NCBI GenBank assembly: GCA_028286485.1
Contig: JAQBRM010000030.1
Coordinates: 1 to 39,544 of the forward strand
DNA: 39,544 nt
Direction: 5' to 3'
Source of the DNA: Candidatus Nomurabacteria bacterium
GTDB lineage: Bacteria > Patescibacteriota > Minisyncoccia > Phycocordibacterales > UBA9973
Shown piece after piece: positions 6,165 to 28,912 of the stretch. The first letter of the stretch is position 1; the number at the start of each line of letters is the position of its first letter. Below the pieces are notes generated by a model. The model saw only the letters and a program-made list of their open reading frames with translations, did not search any database and was not told the origin of the DNA. The position numbers were made by a program, and so were the translations under genes.

Positions 6165-8131
6165 TCGTAACTGAATTATACAAAGGCCAAGGGTTGGGCA
6201 ATCAGCTGGCTTGTTATATTTGTACTCGGGTTATCGCCTTGGATAAGGGCTATGCTTTCGGTATCCAGTCTCCTGAAAATTTCAAGGGCGCTGATTTTCT
6301 CGATGTGGATTTTGGAGAAACGGTCATTGGCGGCAGTGGGCCGGAAGGAGGACCCCCTGCCACATTGCCGCAAGGTATTGCTCAGTATTATACAGAACGC
6401 CTGCTCTTTCATCCGGAAAACGGATCCAATATCACCACATATGATCCCCTGTTGGTTAATGTGGCTGATAACACCAAAATCGACGGATTGATGCAAGACG
6501 AGCAATATATCATCCACCGAAAAGATCAGATTAAAAAATGGCTTGCCGTAAAACCGGAATATGAATGTTATGACTATGCCGATGAAAACACCTGCGTTAT
6601 TAATTTCCGCGGCGGCGAATATGCCCGCCATCCAGAATTCTTTTTGAGCAAAAAATACTGGGATGATGCGGTACGTCACATGCTGACCATAAATAAAAAT
6701 TTCAGATTTATCGTCATTACAGATGATGTGTTTACGGCAAAAAAGTTCTTCCCGACCTATGACGTTTTCCATTTTAGTATCGGAAAAGATTACACTATCA
6801 TTAAAAACGCTCACTATCTCATTCTTTCCAACTCAACCTTCGCTTGGTTCCCGGCGTGGACCAGCGACGTATTGAAATTTTGCATTGCCCCGAAATATTT
6901 CGCTCGCCACAACATATCAGACGGGTACTGGAGTTTGGGATATAACATCACCACCCGTTGGAATTACATGGATCGAGAGGGCGTATTGCATGATTATGCT
7001 GCTTGCCTGGTACAGCTGAAGGAATATATGGAAAGCCATGCTGATTTTTACTCCCCCGCTATTGGGATCCCTCCTCGTCCCCTACACAAAAAAAGCGCCC
7101 GCTCTTTTCTGGCGGCCCATACTCCTCCACGAATTAAAAATGTCATAAAATCCATAATAAATGAAAGCAATGATATTTATAATACTATCAAAAGGCCCTT
7201 TGATTTAATAGCGGAAAAAAAGCGACGCCAAGCATGGCTTTCCGCCATCGAGTCGGCCGAATACCGTAAAAAAATAAAAGTGTATGATGTTTTTAATTTT
7301 TTTAATGAACTGGAAACGTTGGATATTCGCTTGAATATCTTGAATGAATATGTTGATTATTTCGTCCTTATCGAATCCACTCTTACGCACTCTGGCATGC
7401 CGAAGGAATTGCTGTATGAAAAAAATAAGCATCTTTTCAAGCCGTTTGAAAACAAAATCATTCACTATGTCATCGATGCTCCATTAAAAGATTTTGACGA
7501 TGCCCGACAAAGGCTGCTGGATCCCGCTACGCCAGCCCTAGAAAAAAGGATTTTAAATGATGCCCTGACTTCCGATAATATTCCGCCGGGAGATGATAAT
7601 TACCTGCGTGATTTCTATGAAAAAGAATCGGTTAAGAAACCTTTGGCGGATCTGGCGGATGATGACATATGCTACATATCCGACTTGGATGAAATCTGGA
7701 ATCCGGAAGCGCCGATTGATTATTCCAAAGATGATATTTATAGATATAAGCAAGATGCGTATGTGTACTATCTTAACAACCGCTCCAATGAGGACTGGAG
7801 AGGATGGACAGGAACCATCGCTACTAAATATAAGAACATAAAGAACAATTGCGTAAATGACTTGCGCACCTTTGGTAAAACCGCATACACTGTTATCCGA
7901 AACGGCGGTTGGCACTTTACCTTCCAAGGAGGAGCGCAAAGGATCAAGGACAAATTGGCTTCTTATAGCTATCATGAGCTCAATACGAAAGATACGCGGG
8001 CACAGGTAGAAAGCCTGCTATCGAAAAACAAGGATATCAAAGGAAGATATATCCGGTTCTGGAAAGATGAAAGCAAATTGCCGAAATACTTGTTGGACAA
8101 TAAGGAGAAATATAAAAGTTTATTTAAATGA
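6161..8131 (+). CDS. Two-domain glycosyltransferase: GT11-like N-terminus fused to GT17 (MGAT3-like) C-terminus
   Basis: N-half GQGLGNQL, NFRGGEY, LSNSTFAWFPAW (GT11-like); C-half VYDVFNFFNELETLDIRL, VDYFVLIES..THSG, SDLDEI, GGWHFTF (GT17). Confidence 0.8.
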   Translation: MIVTELYKGQGLGNQLACYICTRVIALDKGYAFGIQSPENFKGADFLDVDFGETVIGGSGPEGGPPATLPQGIAQYYTERLLFHPENGSNITTYDPLLVNVADNTKIDGLMQDEQYIIHRKDQIKKWLAVKPEYECYDYADENTCVINFRGGEYARHPEFFLSKKYWDDAVRHMLTINKNFRFIVITDDVFTAKKFFPTYDVFHFSIGKDYTIIKNAHYLILSNSTFAWFPAWTSDVLKFCIAPKYFARHNISDGYWSLGYNITTRWNYMDREGVLHDYAACLVQLKEYMESHADFYSPAIGIPPRPLHKKSARSFLAAHTPPRIKNVIKSIINESNDIYNTIKRPFDLIAEKKRRQAWLSAIESAEYRKKIKVYDVFNFFNELETLDIRLNILNEYVDYFVLIESTLTHSGMPKELLYEKNKHLFKPFENKIIHYVIDAPLKDFDDARQRLLDPATPALEKRILNDALTSDNIPPGDDNYLRDFYEKESVKKPLADLADDDICYISDLDEIWNPEAPIDYSKDDIYRYKQDAYVYYLNNRSNEDWRGWTGTIATKYKNIKNNCVNDLRTFGKTAYTVIRNGGWHFTFQGGAQRIKDKLASYSYHELNTKDTRAQVESLLSKNKDIKGRYIRFWKDESKLPKYLLDNKEKYKSLFK

Positions 8132-19059: not shown

Positions 19060-20058
19060 TTATTTGCTTGCGTCCAGCTGCGCCACACTCTTCCACGCAA
19101 TACCCGAAATATCACTGATCACTTTCTGCAATGAAGGAAAGTCGGTTCCTTTGGTCATGACACAAAGCAAATAGGGATCATTCGGTGCATAGATAATGCC
19201 GCAGTCGTGCAGTTCACGAACTGTTGGTGCACTACTGCCTGATGCAGGCACAATGGTACGTTCCCCGAACTTATGGGCTACCACTGTCCCACTGGGCACT
19301 CCCGCCACTAGCCCTTGCGTGAATGTGGTCTTACTCATTAATTCCAATGCTTGATTGGAAATATCATCAGAAAGATAGGCTCCATTATACAGAGAACGAA
19401 AAACGCGAGAAAACATTTTCGGCGAATACAGATCAATTGAATTTTTTTGATCAGGTGTAGGCATCTGCAAATCGGTATATGTCTTGTTGATAAGAGTTTT
19501 TCCTACAAATGCATCAACCGCGAGTGCAGAATTATTGTCGGAATCAATGATCATATCGGATAACAGTTCTTGAGCGGGATATGATTGACCCACTTGAGCG
19601 GGATGAGCCGGTGGATAGAAATCCTGACTAGTATCACTATTGGTAGTAACCGTAATACTTTTTGATAGTAATGTAGGATCTTTCTGTGCTTCCCGCAGAA
19701 AAGCTACCATAGAAACAACTTTCAGCATACTGGCAGGTGCATACAGTTCATCAGCATTAATACCAACCCAGCGATCGGCATTAAGTTGGCGAAAATAGAC
19801 TGATATGTTGGTAGCGTTATTTTGAGTAGTAGCACTAGCAATATAGTCGGATATATCCTTCTTTAGTGATTGGAATTGAGGGGTGGTCGTATCTTCCGGA
19901 ACCTGTAATAGTAGTACCGGATCAATGAACTTATAGTCTGCGGGATTCTCACGGACGAAGGCAGTGGTGCCGCCTTGCATCGGTTTATGCACATACCATC
20001 CTACTATTCCCCCTAGGGCAAATAATACAAGACTTGTAATAACAATTTTCTTAGTCAT
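19060..20058 (-). CDS. Class A beta-lactamase-related serine hydrolase, membrane-anchored
   Basis: PASMLK (SxxK), SDN, HKFG (KTG variant), HDCGIIY...PYLLCVMT; N-terminal TM. Confidence 0.88.
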   Translation of the reverse strand: MTKKIVITSLVLFALGGIVGWYVHKPMQGGTTAFVRENPADYKFIDPVLLLQVPEDTTTPQFQSLKKDISDYIASATTQNNATNISVYFRQLNADRWVGINADELYAPASMLKVVSMVAFLREAQKDPTLLSKSITVTTNSDTSQDFYPPAHPAQVGQSYPAQELLSDMIIDSDNNSALAVDAFVGKTLINKTYTDLQMPTPDQKNSIDLYSPKMFSRVFRSLYNGAYLSDDISNQALELMSKTTFTQGLVAGVPSGTVVAHKFGERTIVPASGSSAPTVRELHDCGIIYAPNDPYLLCVMTKGTDFPSLQKVISDISGIAWKSVAQLDASK

Positions 20059-22238: not shown

Positions 22239-22642
22239 ATAAGATATTAGTATGTTGTTAATCGTACGAAGTCCATTGCACTATCGACAAATAGTGCGAA
22301 CAACGACGTTTTCTCCGGTGAAAGTGTCTTTATCACACTCGCACAAAAGGATTGTAATTTGCAGATTGCAATGAATTACTGCATTGCGTATCTGCCGTGT
22401 CGACAAGGCCGATATCAAGTCTTCTACGTGAGCAGAAAACAAAAGAACGGTCGCCGAAAATTGTTCTAACGAATTTACATTTGTTATTGAATTTTCAATG
22501 ACCATTCATTTCGTGGTTTCTCGCGTATCCGCGAGACACGTACTCATTGCTGAATATATGTACACGTTTGTCTTCTGCACTCTCCATACTGCCACATTGC
22601 TGAGGTAGTATTTCAAGACAGAAAGACCCTACTATAGTAGCA
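22239..22642 (-). promoter_or_regulatory. Promoter plus ~390-nt multi-hairpin 5' leader (candidate structured RNA)
   Basis: Extended -10 TGcTACTAT at 22642-22634; hairpins at 22278-22297, 22361-22395, 22512-22540, 22541-22556 and 22586-22611. Confidence 0.55.
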
Positions 22643-22751
22643 CACTACCCCTAAAAGGAATAGTGGGGAAACCATATCGATACTGAAAAACCACTTATGA
22701 ATAAGACGAGGGAGGGATGAGGATATTACATCAAAATCTCAAGCTAATATA

Positions 22752-23411
22752 CTATTGAATTGATCTACCTTCGCTAACGCTGAGGTAGATGCTCCACCGC
22801 TTCTCTCCCCTCTTGGTGATTTTGCCACTGCTGACCAATGCACCGAGTTCGCGTTGAATTGTCTTCTCACTAGTGTCCGAAAAGAGTGCGGCAATGTCCT
22901 TAATACCGACAGACTTACGCTCATTGATAAAGGACAAAATGGTGTCTTGCCGTTTAGATTTATTATCATGTGAAATAAGCACTTTGGACGGGTTACTGAT
23001 TTTGAGTGGGCGAGCTGGGTAGGGAGGGCGTGAAGTGTTATAGGACAAATTTTGAGTAGTACTGTCGGGAGCACTATCGGACGCAAACAACGCACTGAGG
23101 GTGGTGGTCTCCTCTTTCGCGCTCGTGACATAGTGCCGCAACTCCAGAGAAATAATGGAGGCATTTTTTTCTGAAATCATGCGAGCCATTACCGCTGTTT
23201 GCAGTAATGTTTCAATCGTCTGCGCGAGGGCGGCAATGACGCTCTCTTGATGGGCGATGCTCAGTGTCACGGCATGGGTCCGTAACGTGTTCTTGAGCGG
23301 ATCACTATCGGACAAATGATGGCTGACCAAGTACACTGCGGCAGCAATCTTATGTCCCTTAGTGTTGTCTTTTTTATCAGATCCTTTATTTAAATAATTA
23401 TATGATTCCAT
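22752..23411 (-). CDS. Putative DNA-binding protein: four-helix-bundle-like N-domain, disordered linker, DeoR-type winged HTH
   Basis: C-terminal RQDTILSFINERKSVGIKDIAALFSDTSEKTIQRELGALVSSGKITKRGEKRWSIY is a wHTH; N-terminal HKIAAAVYLVS...PLKNTLRTHAV is helical. Confidence 0.75.
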   Translation of the reverse strand: MESYNYLNKGSDKKDNTKGHKIAAAVYLVSHHLSDSDPLKNTLRTHAVTLSIAHQESVIAALAQTIETLLQTAVMARMISEKNASIISLELRHYVTSAKEETTTLSALFASDSAPDSTTQNLSYNTSRPPYPARPLKISNPSKVLISHDNKSKRQDTILSFINERKSVGIKDIAALFSDTSEKTIQRELGALVSSGKITKRGEKRWSIYLSVSEGRSIQ

Positions 23412-23425
23412 TGGGGGTGTAGATT

Positions 23426-23505
23426 TGTCTCTTATATATGTCCTTTTTGTCCTATATAATTTTCCTGAATAAAACGAGTATAGCGTCCTTTACAATAAAG
23501 GACAA
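23426..23505 (-). promoter_or_regulatory. Promoter of the wHTH gene with overlapping GTCCTTTA-N3-TAAAGGAC inverted repeat and AGGACA direct repeats
   Basis: Minus strand TTGTCC-N17-TATACT (23505-23477); IR at 23485-23503; TGTCCT at 23439 and 23448, TGTCTC at 23426. Confidence 0.65.
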
Positions 23506-23588
23506 GCGTTCCGGCATGTCACAATAATCCTTGCAATATAATAGTTTTTCAATACTCCGAGTGATATACTGTTACAATATCGACCGCT

Positions 23589-25775
23589 ATGGCAAAGAAA
23601 CAATTCCCCAAGAAACAAGCTCCGCAAAAGAATCCGCCGCGCAACAACCACGTAGTCATCGGGCTACTGCTTATTTTGCTGGGATTGATCACATTAGGAG
23701 GAATCATTGGCACGGCAGGGGTAGCGGGGTTTGTGGTCGCTCAAGGCGCTGATGTGCTTTTGGGTACCGGCAAGTTCATTATTCCCATTATTTTCATTAC
23801 CGCCGGGGTATTAGTCATGCGTAAACGCAGCCTCGATGCGACCACGCGGGAAATCATTACCGGCACACTGGGACTACTGGCATTATTGACGCTACTCTCT
23901 TTATATAATGACAGTTGGGGTGGTTTAGTCGGTCATTTGCTGGCTACACCATTACTGGGTACCTTTGATATCCTCTTTACCACGCTTATCTTGATGTTTA
24001 TTACTGCTACCTCATTTATTCTCTTTTTCGATCGTACACCCAACCTTTTCCCCTTCTTCAGTATGTTGGTGGCCCGTATTCGCGCCCTGTTCACCAAGAA
24101 GGAGCCTTCGTATGAAGTTGAGACCACGATGGATGAACCGACAGAAGACTACCTTCCGGCCACTGCTCCAATGATGCCAGAAAAAAGTGTTGAGCAACCA
24201 AAGACGCCGAAAGAACTGACCGTCAATGATGCCTCAGTTGGTGGTGAGCTCATTATCGATCCCAAGAAGCGCGCCTCATTCGGCACCTATACTCCTCCCC
24301 CCTTGAGCCTGCTTGAAGGTGACCGCGGCAAGGCGAACGTCGGTGATGTCAAAGCCAATGCCAACATTATTCGTCGCACCCTCATGAACTTCGGCATTGA
24401 GGTGGAAATGGATGAAGTCACCATCGGACCGACCGTCACGCGCTATGCCTTGAAGCCCGCTCAAGGAGTGAAGCTGTCCCGTATTGTCGGCTTGCAGAGT
24501 GACTTGGCCTTGGCCTTGGCTGCTCATCCGATCCGTATCGAGGCGCCGATCCCCGGCAAGAGTTTGGTGGGTATTGAAATCCCGAACAAGACCAAAGCAA
24601 CGGTTGGTTTGGCCAGCCTGCTGTCTGACCCTTCATTTGCCCAAGACAAGAAGCCTCTCGTGGCTGCCTTGGGCCGAAATATTGCCGGCAAGCCCGTGTT
24701 GAAAAGCATTGCCAAGATGCCACACTTGCTCATCGCCGGTACGACCGGCTCCGGTAAGTCAGTTACTATTCACGCCATCATTACATCGCTCCTCTATCGC
24801 CATGGGCCGGATCAGCTGCGATTTATTTTTGTGGACCCGAAGCGTGTTGAGCTCACGCTCTACAACTCTATTCCCCACCTCCTCACGCCGGTCATCACTG
24901 AACCGAAGAAAGCCATCCTCGCCTTGAAGTGGGCGGCAACGGAAATGAATCGCCGTTACGATATTCTCGAAGGTGAAAGTGTTCGTGATATTGATTCGTA
25001 TCATAAGTTGTACGAAAAGGAACTAGCAAAGCCTGAAACAACCCAGGACCGCATGCCATACATCGTCATCATCATTGATGAGTTGGCCGATATCATGCAA
25101 GCCTACCCTCGTGAACTCGAAGCCGCTATCGTGCGCTTGGCGCAAATGTCCCGCGCCGTCGGCATTCACCTTATTCTCTCCACCCAACGTCCGGAAGTGA
25201 ATATCATTACCGGCCTTATCAAGGCCAACGTGCCGTCCCGTATCGCCCTTCGTGTGCCGACAGGCATCGACTCCCGTACCATTCTGGATACCACTGGCGC
25301 CGAGAAACTATTGGGTCAAGGAGATATGCTGGCCGTAGTGGGGGGTGACAGCCAGGCAGAACGATTGCAGAGTGCATATATCACTGAAGACGAGGTCAAA
25401 AATGTGGTAAAATACCTCAAGAACGCATTCAAAGATGATGTACGAGATACCATTGAACTGAGCGGTACCGTAGGCGGTGGAGGCGACAAAACCATCTTCG
25501 GAGCCGACATTGGTGACGAAGAAGACGATGAACTGTATGAGGAAGCCCGCACTTGCGTGATGGAAGCCGGCAAAGCCTCAACTTCCTATATTCAACGCAA
25601 GCTGAAAGTCGGCTATGCCCGCGCTGCCCGCCTGATCGACCTGCTCGAAGAACGCGGCATTGTCGGACCGGCTGATGGCGCCAAGCCTCGCGAAGTACTG
25701 ATTGGATCCCGCCCCGCCTCAATGGACACTGCGGGGCACGATTCTGCTGAATCGGACGCATCAGCGAACTACTAA
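23589..25775 (+). CDS. ftsK: DNA translocase FtsK/SpoIIIE
   Basis: N-terminal TMs; GPTVTRY, IRIEAPIPGKSLVGIEIPN, MPHLLIAGTTGSGKS, IIDELADIM, gamma domain STSYIQRKLKVGYARAARLID. Confidence 0.97.
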   Translation: MAKKQFPKKQAPQKNPPRNNHVVIGLLLILLGLITLGGIIGTAGVAGFVVAQGADVLLGTGKFIIPIIFITAGVLVMRKRSLDATTREIITGTLGLLALLTLLSLYNDSWGGLVGHLLATPLLGTFDILFTTLILMFITATSFILFFDRTPNLFPFFSMLVARIRALFTKKEPSYEVETTMDEPTEDYLPATAPMMPEKSVEQPKTPKELTVNDASVGGELIIDPKKRASFGTYTPPPLSLLEGDRGKANVGDVKANANIIRRTLMNFGIEVEMDEVTIGPTVTRYALKPAQGVKLSRIVGLQSDLALALAAHPIRIEAPIPGKSLVGIEIPNKTKATVGLASLLSDPSFAQDKKPLVAALGRNIAGKPVLKSIAKMPHLLIAGTTGSGKSVTIHAIITSLLYRHGPDQLRFIFVDPKRVELTLYNSIPHLLTPVITEPKKAILALKWAATEMNRRYDILEGESVRDIDSYHKLYEKELAKPETTQDRMPYIVIIIDELADIMQAYPRELEAAIVRLAQMSRAVGIHLILSTQRPEVNIITGLIKANVPSRIALRVPTGIDSRTILDTTGAEKLLGQGDMLAVVGGDSQAERLQSAYITEDEVKNVVKYLKNAFKDDVRDTIELSGTVGGGGDKTIFGADIGDEEDDELYEEARTCVMEAGKASTSYIQRKLKVGYARAARLIDLLEERGIVGPADGAKPREVLIGSRPASMDTAGHDSAESDASANY
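25710..25759 (+). repeat. 50-bp double-hairpin element, copy 1 (in-frame in the ftsK C-terminal tail)
   Basis: cGCCCCGC-ctcaatggacact-GCGGGGCa followed by CGATTCTGCTGAATCGGACGC; the last 21 bp are identical to the reverse complement of 32060-32080. Confidence 0.85.
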
Positions 25776-25778
25776 AAT

Positions 25779-26186
25779 ATGAGAAAAATACAAAAAATGA
25801 TGGGAAAAATTACGCTTACTACTGTCTTGATCGGCACATTGGCTGCGGCTTTTCTTAGCCTCGTGGCCTATAACGTCAAAGATATCGCCTTCGGTACCCC
25901 ATTCACCGTACAAGCGGCCGCTGTCGATGGTGCAACGGTCAACGGCATGTTCATGCCGATCAGCGGCAGCACCAAGCATGCCCAGCAGATCACGATCAAT
26001 GGCCGCACCGTCGGTGTTGATCCTCAGGGCAACTTCAAGGATGGCGTCGTGCTCTCCCCCGGGTATAATATAGTGGAGGTTACAGAACGAGATCAATTTG
26101 GTAAAACAAAAACCGTAGCCTATCACTGGGTAGTAGCACCCTCCGTCTCAGTCGCTCAGAACGATGTCTCCCCTTATCAACGATAA
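25779..26186 (+). CDS. Membrane-anchored Ig-like domain protein
   Basis: N-terminal TM; [18 protein letters not shown]...[25 protein letters not shown] is a bacterial Ig-fold pattern. Confidence 0.7.
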
Positions 26187-26200
26187 TCCTTTTAAACCGT

Positions 26201-27322
26201 ATGGCAAAAAAATCAACACCGAAAGAACATAACGCTTCCATCGAAGATACGATCAAATCAATTCAAACCAAATTTGGCGAAGGCGCCATCATGAAGCTCG
26301 GCGAAACACCGAAGGTAGCAATCGCGGCTGTCCCTACCGGCTCTATCGGCTTGGACATTGCGCTTGGTATCGGTGGCTTGCCTCGTGGCCGTATCATTGA
26401 AATATTCGGACCGGAATCATCCGGTAAGACGACGCTGGCACTGCACGTCGTGGCAGAAGCCCAAAAGCTGGGTGGTGTCTGTGCCTATATTGATGCAGAA
26501 CACGCCATGGATCCCGACTACGCCGCAAATATTGGCGTCAAAATCAATGAACTGCTCATTTCCCAACCAGACACTGGTGAACAAGGACTTGAGATTACCG
26601 AAAGTTTGGTACGTAGTGGCAAAATTGATGTCATTGTTATTGACTCAGTGGCTGCCCTCACTCCGAAAGATGAAATTGAGGGAGACATGGGTGCACAGCA
26701 CATGGGCAAGCAAGCTCGTCTGATGTCACAAGCCCTTCGTAAGCTGACCGCTATTGTTGCTCGATCAAACACGATTGTGATTTTCATCAACCAAATCCGC
26801 ATGCAGATCGGTGTGATGTTTGGTAATCCCGAAACCACTCCGGGCGGCAAGGCTTTGAAGTTCTACACGTCCGTGCGTTTGGATATTCGTCGTATCGCAC
26901 AAATTAAGAAAGGTGAAGAAGTTGTCGGCTCCCGTACCCGTGTGAAGGTGGTGAAGAACAAAGTCGCTGCCCCATTCAAGCAAACAGAGTTCGATATCAT
27001 CTATGGTGAAGGTATTTCCCTCGAAGGTGAACTCTTGGCATTAGGTGAAAGCCTTGGTGTGATCAAGAAGAGTGGTACTTCCTATTCATACATTCCGACC
27101 AACCCACCGAAAGTATCCGCCGCTAAGCCTGCCAAGAAAGGTAAGGGTGATGAATCCCCTGCTGAAGACGGCGAAGTAGGAGCAGATGGTGAAGTGAAGC
27201 TCGGCCGTGGCTACGATGCCTCCCGTATCTTCATGCGTGAAAATACCAAAATCCGCGACCATATCGAGAAAGATATTCGTAAGCGCATGAAAGAAGTAGT
27301 CATGAGCAGCTCCGTAGAGTAA
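26201..27322 (+). CDS. recA: Recombinase RecA
   Basis: [57 protein letters not shown]. Confidence 0.99.
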
Positions 27323-28066: not shown

Positions 28067-28648
28067 ATGGCAATGCTTGAATATAACGAGATCCGCGAAC
28101 GAAAAATCATTCTCTGGGAAGGCGAGCCCTATGAAGTCATTACCAGTCATGTCTTCCGCAAACAGCAGCGCAAGCCGGTCAATGCAACCAAGATCAAGAA
28201 TCTCATCACCGGCCGCGTGGCGGAAATCTCCTTCGGCTCATCCGAAAAGGTGCATGAAGCGGACATGATCAGCCGCCCGGCGATCTTCCTGTACAAAGCC
28301 AAGGGCGAAGTCTGGCTGTGCGATGCCAAGGACAAGAGCCAGCGCTTTTCATTGAAGGAGGATATTGTCGGCGACAAGCTGAAGTACATCAAGGATAACA
28401 GTGAAGTTGACCTGATCATTTTCACCAATGACGATGATGAAGAGCAGGTTATTGGCGTGAAGGTACCGATCAAAGTAGAGTTGGAAATTACCGAAGCTCC
28501 TCCGGTCATCAAAGGTGCCAGTGCCAACACCGGCAACAAGGTGGTCACGCTCGAAAACGGCGCGACCATCAACGCTCCCCTTTTCGTCGCTGCCGGCGAC
28601 CGCATCCGCATCAACACTGAGACAGGTGAGTATGTCGAGCGCGCGTAA
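28067..28648 (+). CDS. efp: Elongation factor P
   Basis: GEPYEV, KIKNLITGR, VELEITEAPPVIKG, KVVTLENGATINAPLFV..GDRIRINTETGEYVERA; start ATG 28067. Confidence 0.93.
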   Translation: MAMLEYNEIRERKIILWEGEPYEVITSHVFRKQQRKPVNATKIKNLITGRVAEISFGSSEKVHEADMISRPAIFLYKAKGEVWLCDAKDKSQRFSLKEDIVGDKLKYIKDNSEVDLIIFTNDDDEEQVIGVKVPIKVELEITEAPPVIKGASANTGNKVVTLENGATINAPLFVAAGDRIRINTETGEYVERA

Positions 28649-28711: not shown

Positions 28712-28912
28712 TTAGTTTACGATAAACGGCAAGAGTGCCATGAATCGTGAGCGCTTTACGGCTTCGGCCAGAGAACGTTGGTTCTTGGCACTGAGACCGG
28801 TGCGGCGACGAGACAGGATACGGCCATTCGGGTTCAAAAACCGTTTAAGGTTTTCTACATCCTTGTAGTCGATAAACTGAATGTTGTTTGAATTAAAGTA
28901 ATCGTTTTTCAT
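28712..28912 (-). CDS. rpsR: 30S ribosomal protein S18
   Basis: [13 protein letters not shown]...[28 protein letters not shown]. Confidence 0.97.

Follow-up and report, generated by a model that had tools for sequence, protein, structure and literature searches.

The window analysed here, 39,544 nucleotides of contig JAQBRM010000030.1 from a Candidatus Nomurabacteria bacterium, contains a gene for a small winged-helix protein, in the following termed the regulator, which is oriented divergently from ftsK and embedded in an array of copies of a short DNA word. As judged from the sequences compared, this word is conserved in place in orthologous loci and the non-coding sequence surrounding it is not, and the arrays travel with the regulator gene. 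On balance, we are inclined to regard the regulator as a self-repressing, multi-site transcription factor which may also act on the neighbouring ftsK-recA operon. Autorepression fits the promoter layout best; a function in chromosome organisation is possible and secondary. The interpretation given in a preliminary description of the window, an oligomeric DNA binder at an iteron- or centromere-like array with a role in chromosome organisation or the cell cycle, is partly supported; it had missed the ftsK-orfX-recA unit, the true motif of ca. 10 bp and a second array at the cca gene of relatives.

The motif array at the regulator gene

Positions 22752-23520 comprise one minus-strand open reading frame (ORF) of 219 aa and the larger part of the 177 nt that separate it from the divergent ftsK. 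The motif cluster noted there in the preliminary description is real. All nine of its positions carry either GGACA/TGTCC (22895, 22932, 23043, 23310, 23353, 23439 and 23448) or the TGTCT variant (23366 and 23426), and two further copies of GGACA/TGTCC, absent from that description, are present at 22874 and 23500. Relative to the rate over the whole assembly (G000; 559,536 bp, 88% complete), GGACA occurs 9 times between 22752 and 23520 at an expectation of 1.06, a ca. 9-fold excess over the genomic background; the corresponding values are 6 versus 0.24 for AGGACA and 4 versus 0.06 for AAAGGAC, and 3 of the genome's 10 copies of TAAAGGAC fall into this segment. For each of the three words the regulator locus is also the densest 770-bp stretch of the genome, with 9, 6 and 4 copies compared to 6, 3 and 2 in the respective runners-up. 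No enrichment of AGGACA is seen over the entire window (18 versus a shuffle mean of 14.2); 6 of these 18 copies lie within 22895-23504, so that the signal represents a local cluster. Rfam and tRNA scans of the window gave no match.

The true motif is longer than first noted and extends over about 10 bp, TGTC(C/T)TTTAT. A weight matrix was derived from 118 sites at the loci of 29 other genomes, the window's own locus being left out of the training. Seven of the 30 best matrix matches in G000 fall into 22893-23506, and more than two matches of at least 10.5 bits per 400 bp are found at the regulator locus only, where there are six. Among the 52 matches of at least 12 bits in G000, those outside the regulator locus are all singletons without a common theme, several of them located no more than 40 nt into an ORF (gyrA, RNase J, an oxidoreductase and unknowns). 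The matrix is A/T-rich and also matches Lys-rich gene starts and terminator hairpins elsewhere. Two single matches were found in a reverse-transcriptase gene (RVT_1) that adjoins a Phage_integrase gene at G000:C13:29604-32333.

The copies are arranged around a promoter-like sequence of the regulator gene (Table 1). As the TTGTCC-17-TATACT element spans 23505..23477, the perfect inverted repeat at 23485-23503, correctly recognised in the preliminary description, covers part of the -35 box and the spacer. Its arms form the only pair of TAAAGGAC in the genome with a distance of at most 20 bp (2 of the 10 copies), and they correspond to matrix matches at 23482-23495 (plus strand, 9.8 bits) and 23493-23506 (minus strand, 14.5 bits). 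The five same-strand copies on the other side of the -10 box score 12.8, 15.5, 16.3, 16.1 and 10.9 bits and are spaced by 13, 60, 13 and 9 bp. They read TGTC(C/T)nTTnT on the plus strand, equivalent to an A-rich stretch followed by GGACA on the sense strand of the regulator, and extend over the predicted 5' leader and start codon as well as codons 11-20. The matches at 23351-23364 and 23364-23377 are contained in the stretch aat aaa gga tct gat aaa aaa gac aac act aag gga cat, which codes for the peptide NKGSDKKDNTKGH of the N-terminal tail. Within the gene, GGACA at 23310 is read as H-L-S-D, copies of either orientation are present in the linker-coding region of most orthologues, and the facing pair in the winged-helix coding region is kept at the same gene position in most same-genus loci (offsets ca. 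-465 and -430).

The 5' regions of 30 orthologous loci have little sequence in common besides TGTC(C/T)TTTAT. TGTCCTTT is found in the 5' region of 24 of them; in 8.1 kb of 5' regions 39 copies are oriented antisense to the regulator and 5 lie on the other strand, the flanks holding 3 + 2 copies per 72.6 kb. At least three sites (9 bits) are present in the 5' region of 28 of the 30 loci, in line with the expected conservation of the cluster; this count is circular for all but the window's own locus. Neighbouring copies on the same strand are 9-14 bp apart in 36 of 85 cases, most commonly 11 and 13 bp. An equivalent of the promoter-like element, TTGnnn-N16/17-TATAMT, was assigned by an automatic rule in 18 of 20 same-genus loci, with implausible picks in L011 and L020. 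The plan shared within the genus starts with a GTCC core that lies in the -35 box (TTGTCC) or abuts or merges with the -10 box (tGTCCtTTATAA), often continues with a second core directly past the -10 box, and ends with 3-4 copies of opposite orientation (ATAAAGGACA) over the leader and the first codons. As far as consensus elements can tell, this is the layout of a classical operator set on the regulator's own promoter. In distant families the arrays likewise hug the regulator promoter, and no motif copies were found within ca. 200 bp of the ftsK start.

The word is overrepresented in the gene body as well. Between codon 18 and the stop, 29 orthologues (L029, a partial match, was left out) contain 135 motif 7-mers compared to 47.0 ± 5.2 in 1000 shuffles with protein sequence and codon usage kept (maximum 63), a 2.9-fold excess whose independence is overstated because the orthologues are related. 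For the window's own gene alone, the strict 7-mer count of 2 versus 0.94 in synonymous shuffles is not significant. Across the family, KD, KGQ and KGH abound in the N-terminal tails and linkers (4.4 per 100 aa versus 2.5 in the folded domains); these are the motif in different frames, and its opposite strand is read as L-S-F or L-S-Y. That the N-terminal peptide is spelled by the repeats, as originally noted in part for the window, holds across the family. At the start of the conserved core KGQK changes to KKTEK between clades with AA(A/G)GACA being kept in another frame, and selection therefore acts at least partly on the DNA.

The regulator protein and its neighbourhood

The AlphaFold2 model of the regulator (mean pLDDT 84.6, from an 87-sequence alignment) predicts an N-terminal four-helix bundle, with helices 17-29, 38-52, 56-75 and 81-109 at pLDDT ~98, followed by a linker and a winged helix-turn-helix (HTH) domain. 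HTH_DeoR (PF08220), matched on residues 154-200 with 24.2 bits at a cut-off of 21, is the only Pfam domain found, which agrees with the DeoR-type winged HTH described previously. The similarity to DeoR repressors ends there: the HTH is located C-terminally instead of N-terminally, the DeoRC effector domain (PF00455) gave no Pfam match at E<=1, and no sugar genes are found near the regulator gene. The NCBIfam equivalogs GlpR and FucR reach 15 bits at cut-offs of 259-300; one source labels homologues as 'DeoR family transcriptional regulator'. Owing to the lack of a DeoRC domain the protein is not a sugar repressor, as already supposed. No Pfam match to Rep-family, MraZ, S24-peptidase or LexA-type HTH domains was obtained for the regulator. 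The net charge is about +7 for the winged helix and about 0 for the bundle. Six of the nine family-invariant residues (K183, T184, Q186, R187, R205 and W206) reside in the recognition helix and the wing and match the invariant GTC core of the word. Most likely, the winged helix reads the asymmetric 10-bp word TGTC(C/T)TTTAT, and TGTCCTTTAT is its candidate target sequence.

The bundle had been compared by eye with the 23S-IVP/bAvd family. Its top four structural matches indeed all belong to the IVP/Avd family (2gsc, Z 13.0, rmsd 2.4 over 98 aa; 2rld, 12.1; 4dwl, 11.4; 8ub7_B, 11.2; 95-104 residues spanned; next helical match Z 9.9), although Z values below ca. 13 may reflect a common arrangement of helical bundles. 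A profile comparison was run for this reason. The hhalign program aligned the regulator family with 29 PF05635 domains from genomes of the phylum at 92% probability (E 5.9e-7, 88 columns) and a score of 44.2, compared to 11.2 for a reversed control and at most 17.8 for 20 column shuffles. The best Foldseek match of the bundle is also 2gsc (E 0.01), and an ESM Atlas structure search, taken as a lead only, lists PF05635 clusters as well. According to profiles and model, the bundle is related to 23S_rRNA_IVP/Avd (PF05635, PF22296) by remote homology and not by Pfam membership. The sequence identity amounts to 3-12%, PF05635 does not match the regulator at E<=1, and a search of solved structures with the protein and its family profile revealed nothing significant for the bundle. 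The signature Q..RRA..S..SNIAEG is not kept; hhalign places it opposite non-matching residues and a gap of the regulator family, the SNIAEG region being deleted, whereas Q34, R37, S41, N45, I46, E48 and G49 are invariant columns of the PF05635 set. G000 itself gave no match in a PF05635 search which was positive in 118 of 201 genomes of the phylum (including unpublished G194). A structure prediction with four copies of the bundle scored 0.26 at a mark of 0.42; it gives no answer and speaks neither way. Avd is reported to be pentameric, with a strongly basic barrel (PMC6182149), and the regulator bundle differs in being uncharged and in its fusion to a DNA-binding domain.

The regulator belongs to an uncharacterised family with a new domain combination, an IVP/Avd-like bundle joined to a DNA-binding domain; in published work on Patescibacteria regulators and SOS and on IVP/Avd proteins nothing describing this family was found. 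Searches yielded 210 homologues at E<=1e-3 and, counted as representatives, 3028 at E<=1e-3 and 919 at E<=1e-10, the source names being Paceibacterota, Minisyncoccia and Patescibacteria.

ftsK, orfX and recA follow each other with gaps of 3 and 14 nt and no promoter-like or terminator-like sites on the plus strand between them, and thus likely form an operon. The divergent linkage to ftsK is conserved, and all 18 genomes fetched, 8 from the genus and 10 from other families, keep the order of regulator and ftsK-orfX-recA, each with orfX wedged between ftsK and recA. In the orthologous loci ftsK lies divergently upstream in 18 of the 19 others of the genus, the 19th having a flank of only 206 bp, and in 6 of 10 other-family loci within 1.5-kb flanks. 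The co-directional gene downstream of the regulator codes for a PG_binding_1 protein in 11 of 12 relatives tested, and the gap 3' of the regulator gene recurs with 330-700 nt. Partner partition NTPase genes (ParA, ParM, TubZ) are absent from the genes adjoining the regulator (ftsK, orfX, recA and PG_binding_1), and a ParB_N gene is located elsewhere in G000. Assignment of 23517-23570 as the putative ftsK promoter is by consensus.

No Cheo-type LexA box was found upstream of ftsK or recA. The sole perfect GAAC-N4-GTTC of the window (GAACGTTGGTTC) lies at 28773-28784, between ORFs ending at 28648 and 28918. G000 contains a gene for an S24 peptidase (LexA-like; C31:18883-19221), upstream of which (C31 ~19850-19890) a palindrome GAACGTTCGTTC and one of the two perfect DnaA boxes of the genome are found. 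The idea that the regulator replaces a missing LexA, PF01726 not being found in G000, was dropped in view of this S24 peptidase gene.

The regulator gene was detected in 34 of 41 relatives. In five examined genomes without a match ftsK was either not found (three) or cut at a contig start (two); since the 5' end of ftsK is unassembled in all five, these absences are assembly gaps. Contig breaks in or just upstream of ftsK at this locus are seen at G021:C22:1-1642 and G029:C2:1-707. Of 201 genomes drawn evenly from the phylum, 49 give a match at E<=1e-5, mostly via the winged helix only and in longer proteins, and among these loci ftsK adjacency and motif excess are seen only in G183, G035 and G112. 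Outside the order, the winged-helix-only proteins have neither an adjacent ftsK nor a motif excess. The regulator-array module is essentially confined to this order.

Table 1. Coordinates of the features at the regulator locus, of its neighbouring genes and of matrix false positives in G017
Feature	Position	Strand	Basis and remarks
Promoter-like site of the regulator	23477..23505	-	Consensus scan; -35 TTGTCC 23505..23500, 17-nt spacer, -10 TATACT 23482..23477
Perfect inverted repeat GTCCTTTA-caa-TAAAGGAC, putative operator	23485..23503		Sequence; two facing motif copies
Five same-strand motif copies	23351..23459	+	Matrix; 23351-23364, 23364-23377, 23424-23437, 23437-23450, 23446-23459
Facing motif pair in winged-helix coding region	22893..22938		22893-22906 (+) = I-K-D-I, 13.1 bits; 22925-22938 (-) = I-L-S-F-I, 16.9 bits
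Weaker motif copy, linker-coding region	23036..23049	-	Matrix, 7.6 bits; N-L-S-Y-N
Regulator gene, 219 aa	22752..23411	-	ORF
Variable Lys/Asp-rich tail	residues 1-16	-	Regulator protein
Four-helix bundle	residues 17-109, 23085-23363	-	AlphaFold2 model
Disordered Ser/Thr/Pro-rich linker	residues 110-140, 22992-23084	-	AlphaFold2, pLDDT 54-66
Winged helix-turn-helix	residues 141-213, 22773-22991	-	AlphaFold2; H141-165/H170-174/H182-194 + strands
Putative ftsK promoter region	23517..23570	+	MAFFT of same-genus intergenic regions; genus-conserved block tGTgTc.aAAT-AA.CC-TTa...cAATaGTTTTT; extended -10 TGaTATACT 23562-23570
ftsK	23589-25775	+	Pfam; 4TM, alpha, motor, gamma domains
orfX	25779-26186	+	Pfam; membrane anchor + Glucodextran_B-type beta domain
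recA	26201-27322	+	Pfam
Gap without long ORF	22239-22751		512 nt, regulator to PG_binding_1 gene
PG_binding_1 protein, 696 aa	20148-22238	-	ORF, Pfam; downstream of regulator
False-positive hairpins, G017	C1:208541-208575, C1:219618-219657, C2:87892-87930, C2:266739-266777		Matrix

Second arrays, DnaA boxes and chromosomal position

Pattern searches revealed a recurrent second motif cluster in relatives. In 12 of 12 same-genus loci (L138-L149) it lies inside the gene of the CCA-adding enzyme (cca), at the end of the PolyA_pol head domain, and comprises 3-4 copies in 60 nt at codons ca. 147-170 (e.g. L138:1950-2018), which are read in different frames as IKDK, YKGQ, IKDK and CVL. The cca genes contain 50 motif 7-mers versus 23.4 ± 3.5 in synonymous shuffles (maximum 37). 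The segment reads ...DIKDK.VRCVL in the genus and ...DL..K.IRAVG, motif-free, in three other families; the conserved RAVG of the CCA enzyme is changed to RCVL in the genus, thereby spelling TGTGTCCTT. Neither cca nor the UPF0102 gene was found in the G000 assembly, and because cca is missing from it the second array cannot be demonstrated for this genome. In other families the cluster is instead positioned beside cca: it either separates convergent cca and Exo_endo_phos genes or coincides with the start of a UPF0102 gene that has a Phage_integrase gene in its vicinity. Further clusters occur upstream of a class I tRNA synthetase gene, of a tRNA gene adjoining tsaD, and of dus. The extra clusters elsewhere combine both orientations within 40 bp and include palindromic pairs, which points to double-stranded DNA as the target.

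Of the 10 extra clusters of other families, 6 hold a perfect DnaA box amid the motif copies. Perfect DnaA boxes (TTATCCACA) flanked by motif copies were observed beside cca, xth or UPF0102 at L081:2470-2530, L082:4766-4810 and 7332-7510, L083:2067-2145, L084:2283-2335, L086:2471-2535 and L087:2534-2590, and in G038 a stretch of 200 bp accommodates four DnaA-like boxes together with four copies of the motif. At the regulator gene itself, 9 of the 10 other-family loci (L021-L030) carry a perfect box in constant orientation, 45-370 bp beyond the 3' end of the gene, compared to none of 20 same-genus loci; in the former it lies near a recurring AAAAGTCAA (TTGACT on the opposite strand). With at most one mismatch allowed, no DnaA box was detected in the window's locus or in most same-genus loci. 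Perfect boxes are rare in G000, with 2 in 559 kb.

There is no GC-skew switch at 23.4 kb of the window. In the two-contig relative G017 the cumulative GC-skew minimum lies at C2:224 kb by dnaA (C2:228.6 kb) and the maximum at C1:273 kb. The regulator locus (C1:42 kb) is ca. 94 kb away from the origin signal, provided that the end of C2 joins the start of C1, as suggested by the resulting balanced replichores of 326 and 314 kb, and ca. 231 kb away from the terminus signal. A position at the origin or terminus, which had been raised for the window, is consequently not borne out, and an origin at the regulator locus was rejected because it shows neither a skew switch nor a DnaA box and its G017 orthologue is near neither signal. 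True clusters are restricted to two loci in G017, the regulator and cca, the latter array being ca. 27 kb from the skew minimum and dnaA. AAAAAGACAgc...gcTGTCTTTTT hairpins of G017, which likely serve as two-way terminators, mimic facing pairs and are false positives of the matrix (Table 1).

Possible mode of action and rival explanations

On these grounds we propose a first scenario for the regulator as a lineage-specific transcription factor composed of the bundle, a flexible linker and a basic C-terminal winged helix. The facing copies over the -35 box and spacer and the same-strand run with a period of about one helical turn would load several DNA-binding domains side by side, which are probably joined together by the bundle. 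Loading would shut the regulator's own promoter and thus cause autorepression. The regulator promoter presumably lies back to back with that of ftsK-orfX-recA at a distance of ca. 75-85 bp, so that expression of this operon, too, may be adjusted by the complex. The conserved array in or next to cca of relatives might be a second target. Overlap with the promoter, facing copies and one-turn spacing of the direct copies are what a self-repressing multi-site regulator predicts.

A related strategy is known from MraZ, which is built from SpoVT/AbrB-type domains. This small and widely conserved regulator forms oligomers, is encoded at the head of cell-cycle genes and occupies a series of short direct repeats in the promoter region of its own gene. 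An octamer is reported to engage four repeated boxes (PMC12957436). The folds are unrelated, the present regulator consisting of a winged helix and a four-helix bundle without a Pfam match to MraZ; moreover, its gene is divergent from the operon instead of being the first gene, and its arrays extend into coding sequence.

Several observations weigh against the proposed transcription factor. The promoters are consensus matches only. Many copies lie within coding sequence, both in the regulator gene body and in codons ca. 147-170 of cca in 12 of 12 same-genus loci, and others between convergent genes in other families; such sites are odd places for a control of transcription initiation. The case for a regulation of ftsK-orfX-recA is based on the back-to-back promoters and the unbroken synteny; in distant families the arrays reside at the regulator promoter, at least 200 bp from the ftsK start, and because of this distance the site positions there give no support and synteny has to carry the argument. 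Neither G000 nor the near-complete G017 provided a further convincing target, the remaining matches being singletons or terminator hairpins, and no sensor function is assignable to the bundle. Altogether, promoter control does not account well for the arrays inside genes and in 3' flanks, for the few loci involved and for the association with DnaA boxes.

These features leave room for the strongest competitor, which we consider rather improbable: an iteron- or centromere-like structural nucleoprotein landmark, in which an oligomer with several tethered winged helices, perhaps a pentamer like Avd, would coat or bridge a small number of arrays, those at its own gene by ftsK-recA and at the origin-proximal cca, for chromosome replication, segregation or organisation, with autorepression as a side effect. 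In its favour are the arrays within genes and between convergent genes, a selection on DNA level strong enough to alter a conserved enzyme motif in cca (RAVG to RCVL by TGTGTCCTT; 50 versus 23.4 ± 3.5 7-mers), the presence of only two clusters per genome in G017, the location of its cca array ca. 27 kb from skew minimum and dnaA, and the perfect DnaA boxes, which occur in 6 of the 10 extra clusters and, at 9 of the 10 other-family loci, on the 3' side of the regulator gene. The inverted repeat on the regulator's own promoter in conjunction with direct repeats also recalls the layout of iteron plasmids. Iteron Rep initiators of the RepA, pi and TrfA type contain a winged helix and possess direct repeats by the gene and an inverted repeat on their own promoter for autorepression. 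The regulator shares the winged helix, the adjoining direct repeats, the inverted repeat of the same word on its promoter and, in some relatives, DnaA boxes among the repeats; it lacks a Rep-family domain, its chromosomal word measures 10 bp at a spacing of 9-14 bp compared to iterons of ca. 20 bp, and its locus has no DnaA box or skew switch, the G017 origin by dnaA being ca. 94 kb away. Short repeat arrays occupied by many copies of a small winged-helix protein, with sites in or beside the gene of that protein, are likewise known from centromere-binding systems such as TubR/tubC and ParB, whose gene contains parS. TubR and AspA are among the weak Foldseek matches to the regulator's winged helix (a generic similarity, E ~0.05); a partition NTPase gene does not adjoin the regulator. 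The closest folds of the bundle include Avd, reported to be a pentamer (PMC6182149), and this also speaks for a landmark. The opposing evidence consists of the missing DnaA box (at most one mismatch) at the window's locus and of any perfect one in 20 same-genus loci, the missing skew switch in the window, the distance of the G017 orthologue from both origin and terminus signals (ca. 94 and 231 kb), the separate ParB_N gene in the genome, the absence of a Rep-type domain and of an adjacent partner NTPase gene, and a bundle that is not basic like Avd. A bolder variant, to which we give somewhat less credence still, would be an Avd-like multi-subunit ring whose tethered winged helices wrap 10-bp iteron arrays at two landmarks, the own gene by ftsK-recA and the origin-proximal cca, interleaved with DnaA boxes in some lineages, as a Patescibacteria-specific device of the chromosome cycle.

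We regard it as unlikely that the protein governs a stress or cell-cycle regulon, as a dedicated regulator of ftsK and recA (and of xth, xer and UPF0102 in relatives) in an SOS-like circuit parallel to LexA. The ftsK-orfX-recA synteny in 18 of 18 genomes, the lack of a Cheo-type box upstream of ftsK or recA and the other-family arrays beside Exo_endo_phos (xth-like), Phage_integrase (Xer-like) and UPF0102 genes are compatible with such a circuit. The theme is, however, not a clean one, as the extra arrays adjoin tRNA-related genes no less frequently (cca, class I tRNA synthetase, tsaD, dus and tRNA genes); in addition, the arrays are off the ftsK promoter in distant families, G000 has the LexA-like S24-peptidase gene (C31:18883-19221), and no damage-sensing domain is recognisable in the regulator. 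From LexA/SOS repressors it is distinguished by the lack of an S24 self-cleaving peptidase domain and of a LexA-type HTH. Work by Sanchez-Osuna et al. in 2017 reportedly deals with the SOS network of Patescibacteria and may bear on the regulation of recA.

Still more doubtful is an autoregulation on RNA level, in which the regulator or another factor reads the same-strand copies as AUAAAGGACA repeats in the mRNA leader and controls translation or stability in the manner of repeat-binding ring proteins. The strand bias of the 5' copies (39 versus 5) and their location in the predicted leader and first codons would be in accordance with it, as would Avd relatives, which are reported to act in RNA-protein complexes (8ub7; PMC6182149). 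Against it stand the opposite-strand copies located upstream of the predicted start site, the mixed orientations and palindromes of clusters elsewhere, the uncharged bundle and the basic domain, a winged helix of DNA type. Least probable of all is that the words are not the regulator's sites, being bound by another factor or reflecting coding or compositional bias such as Lys/Asp-rich tails, to which the A/T-rich matrix with its matches to Lys-rich gene starts and terminator hairpins and the KD, KGQ and KGH of tails and linkers would lend themselves, but which is contradicted by the conserved non-coding copies, by the reading of the word in different frames and on both strands (KD, KGQ, LSF, CVL), by its 2.9-fold excess over synonymous shuffles and by its co-occurrence with the gene.

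Sites or targets are known for hardly any transcription factor of the Patescibacteria (CPR). The module described here offers a concrete pairing, predicted from sequence comparison, of a protein family with invariant recognition-helix residues and a 10-bp word conserved across the order, along with two conserved candidate target loci. Putative binding sites appear to be selected inside coding sequence, in several frames and at the cost of a conserved enzyme motif. The widespread and functionally obscure IVP/Avd bundle gains a new context by its fusion to a DNA-binding domain. Finally, a candidate target adjoining ftsK and recA may provide an entry to the control of cell cycle and genome maintenance in organisms not yet grown alone.

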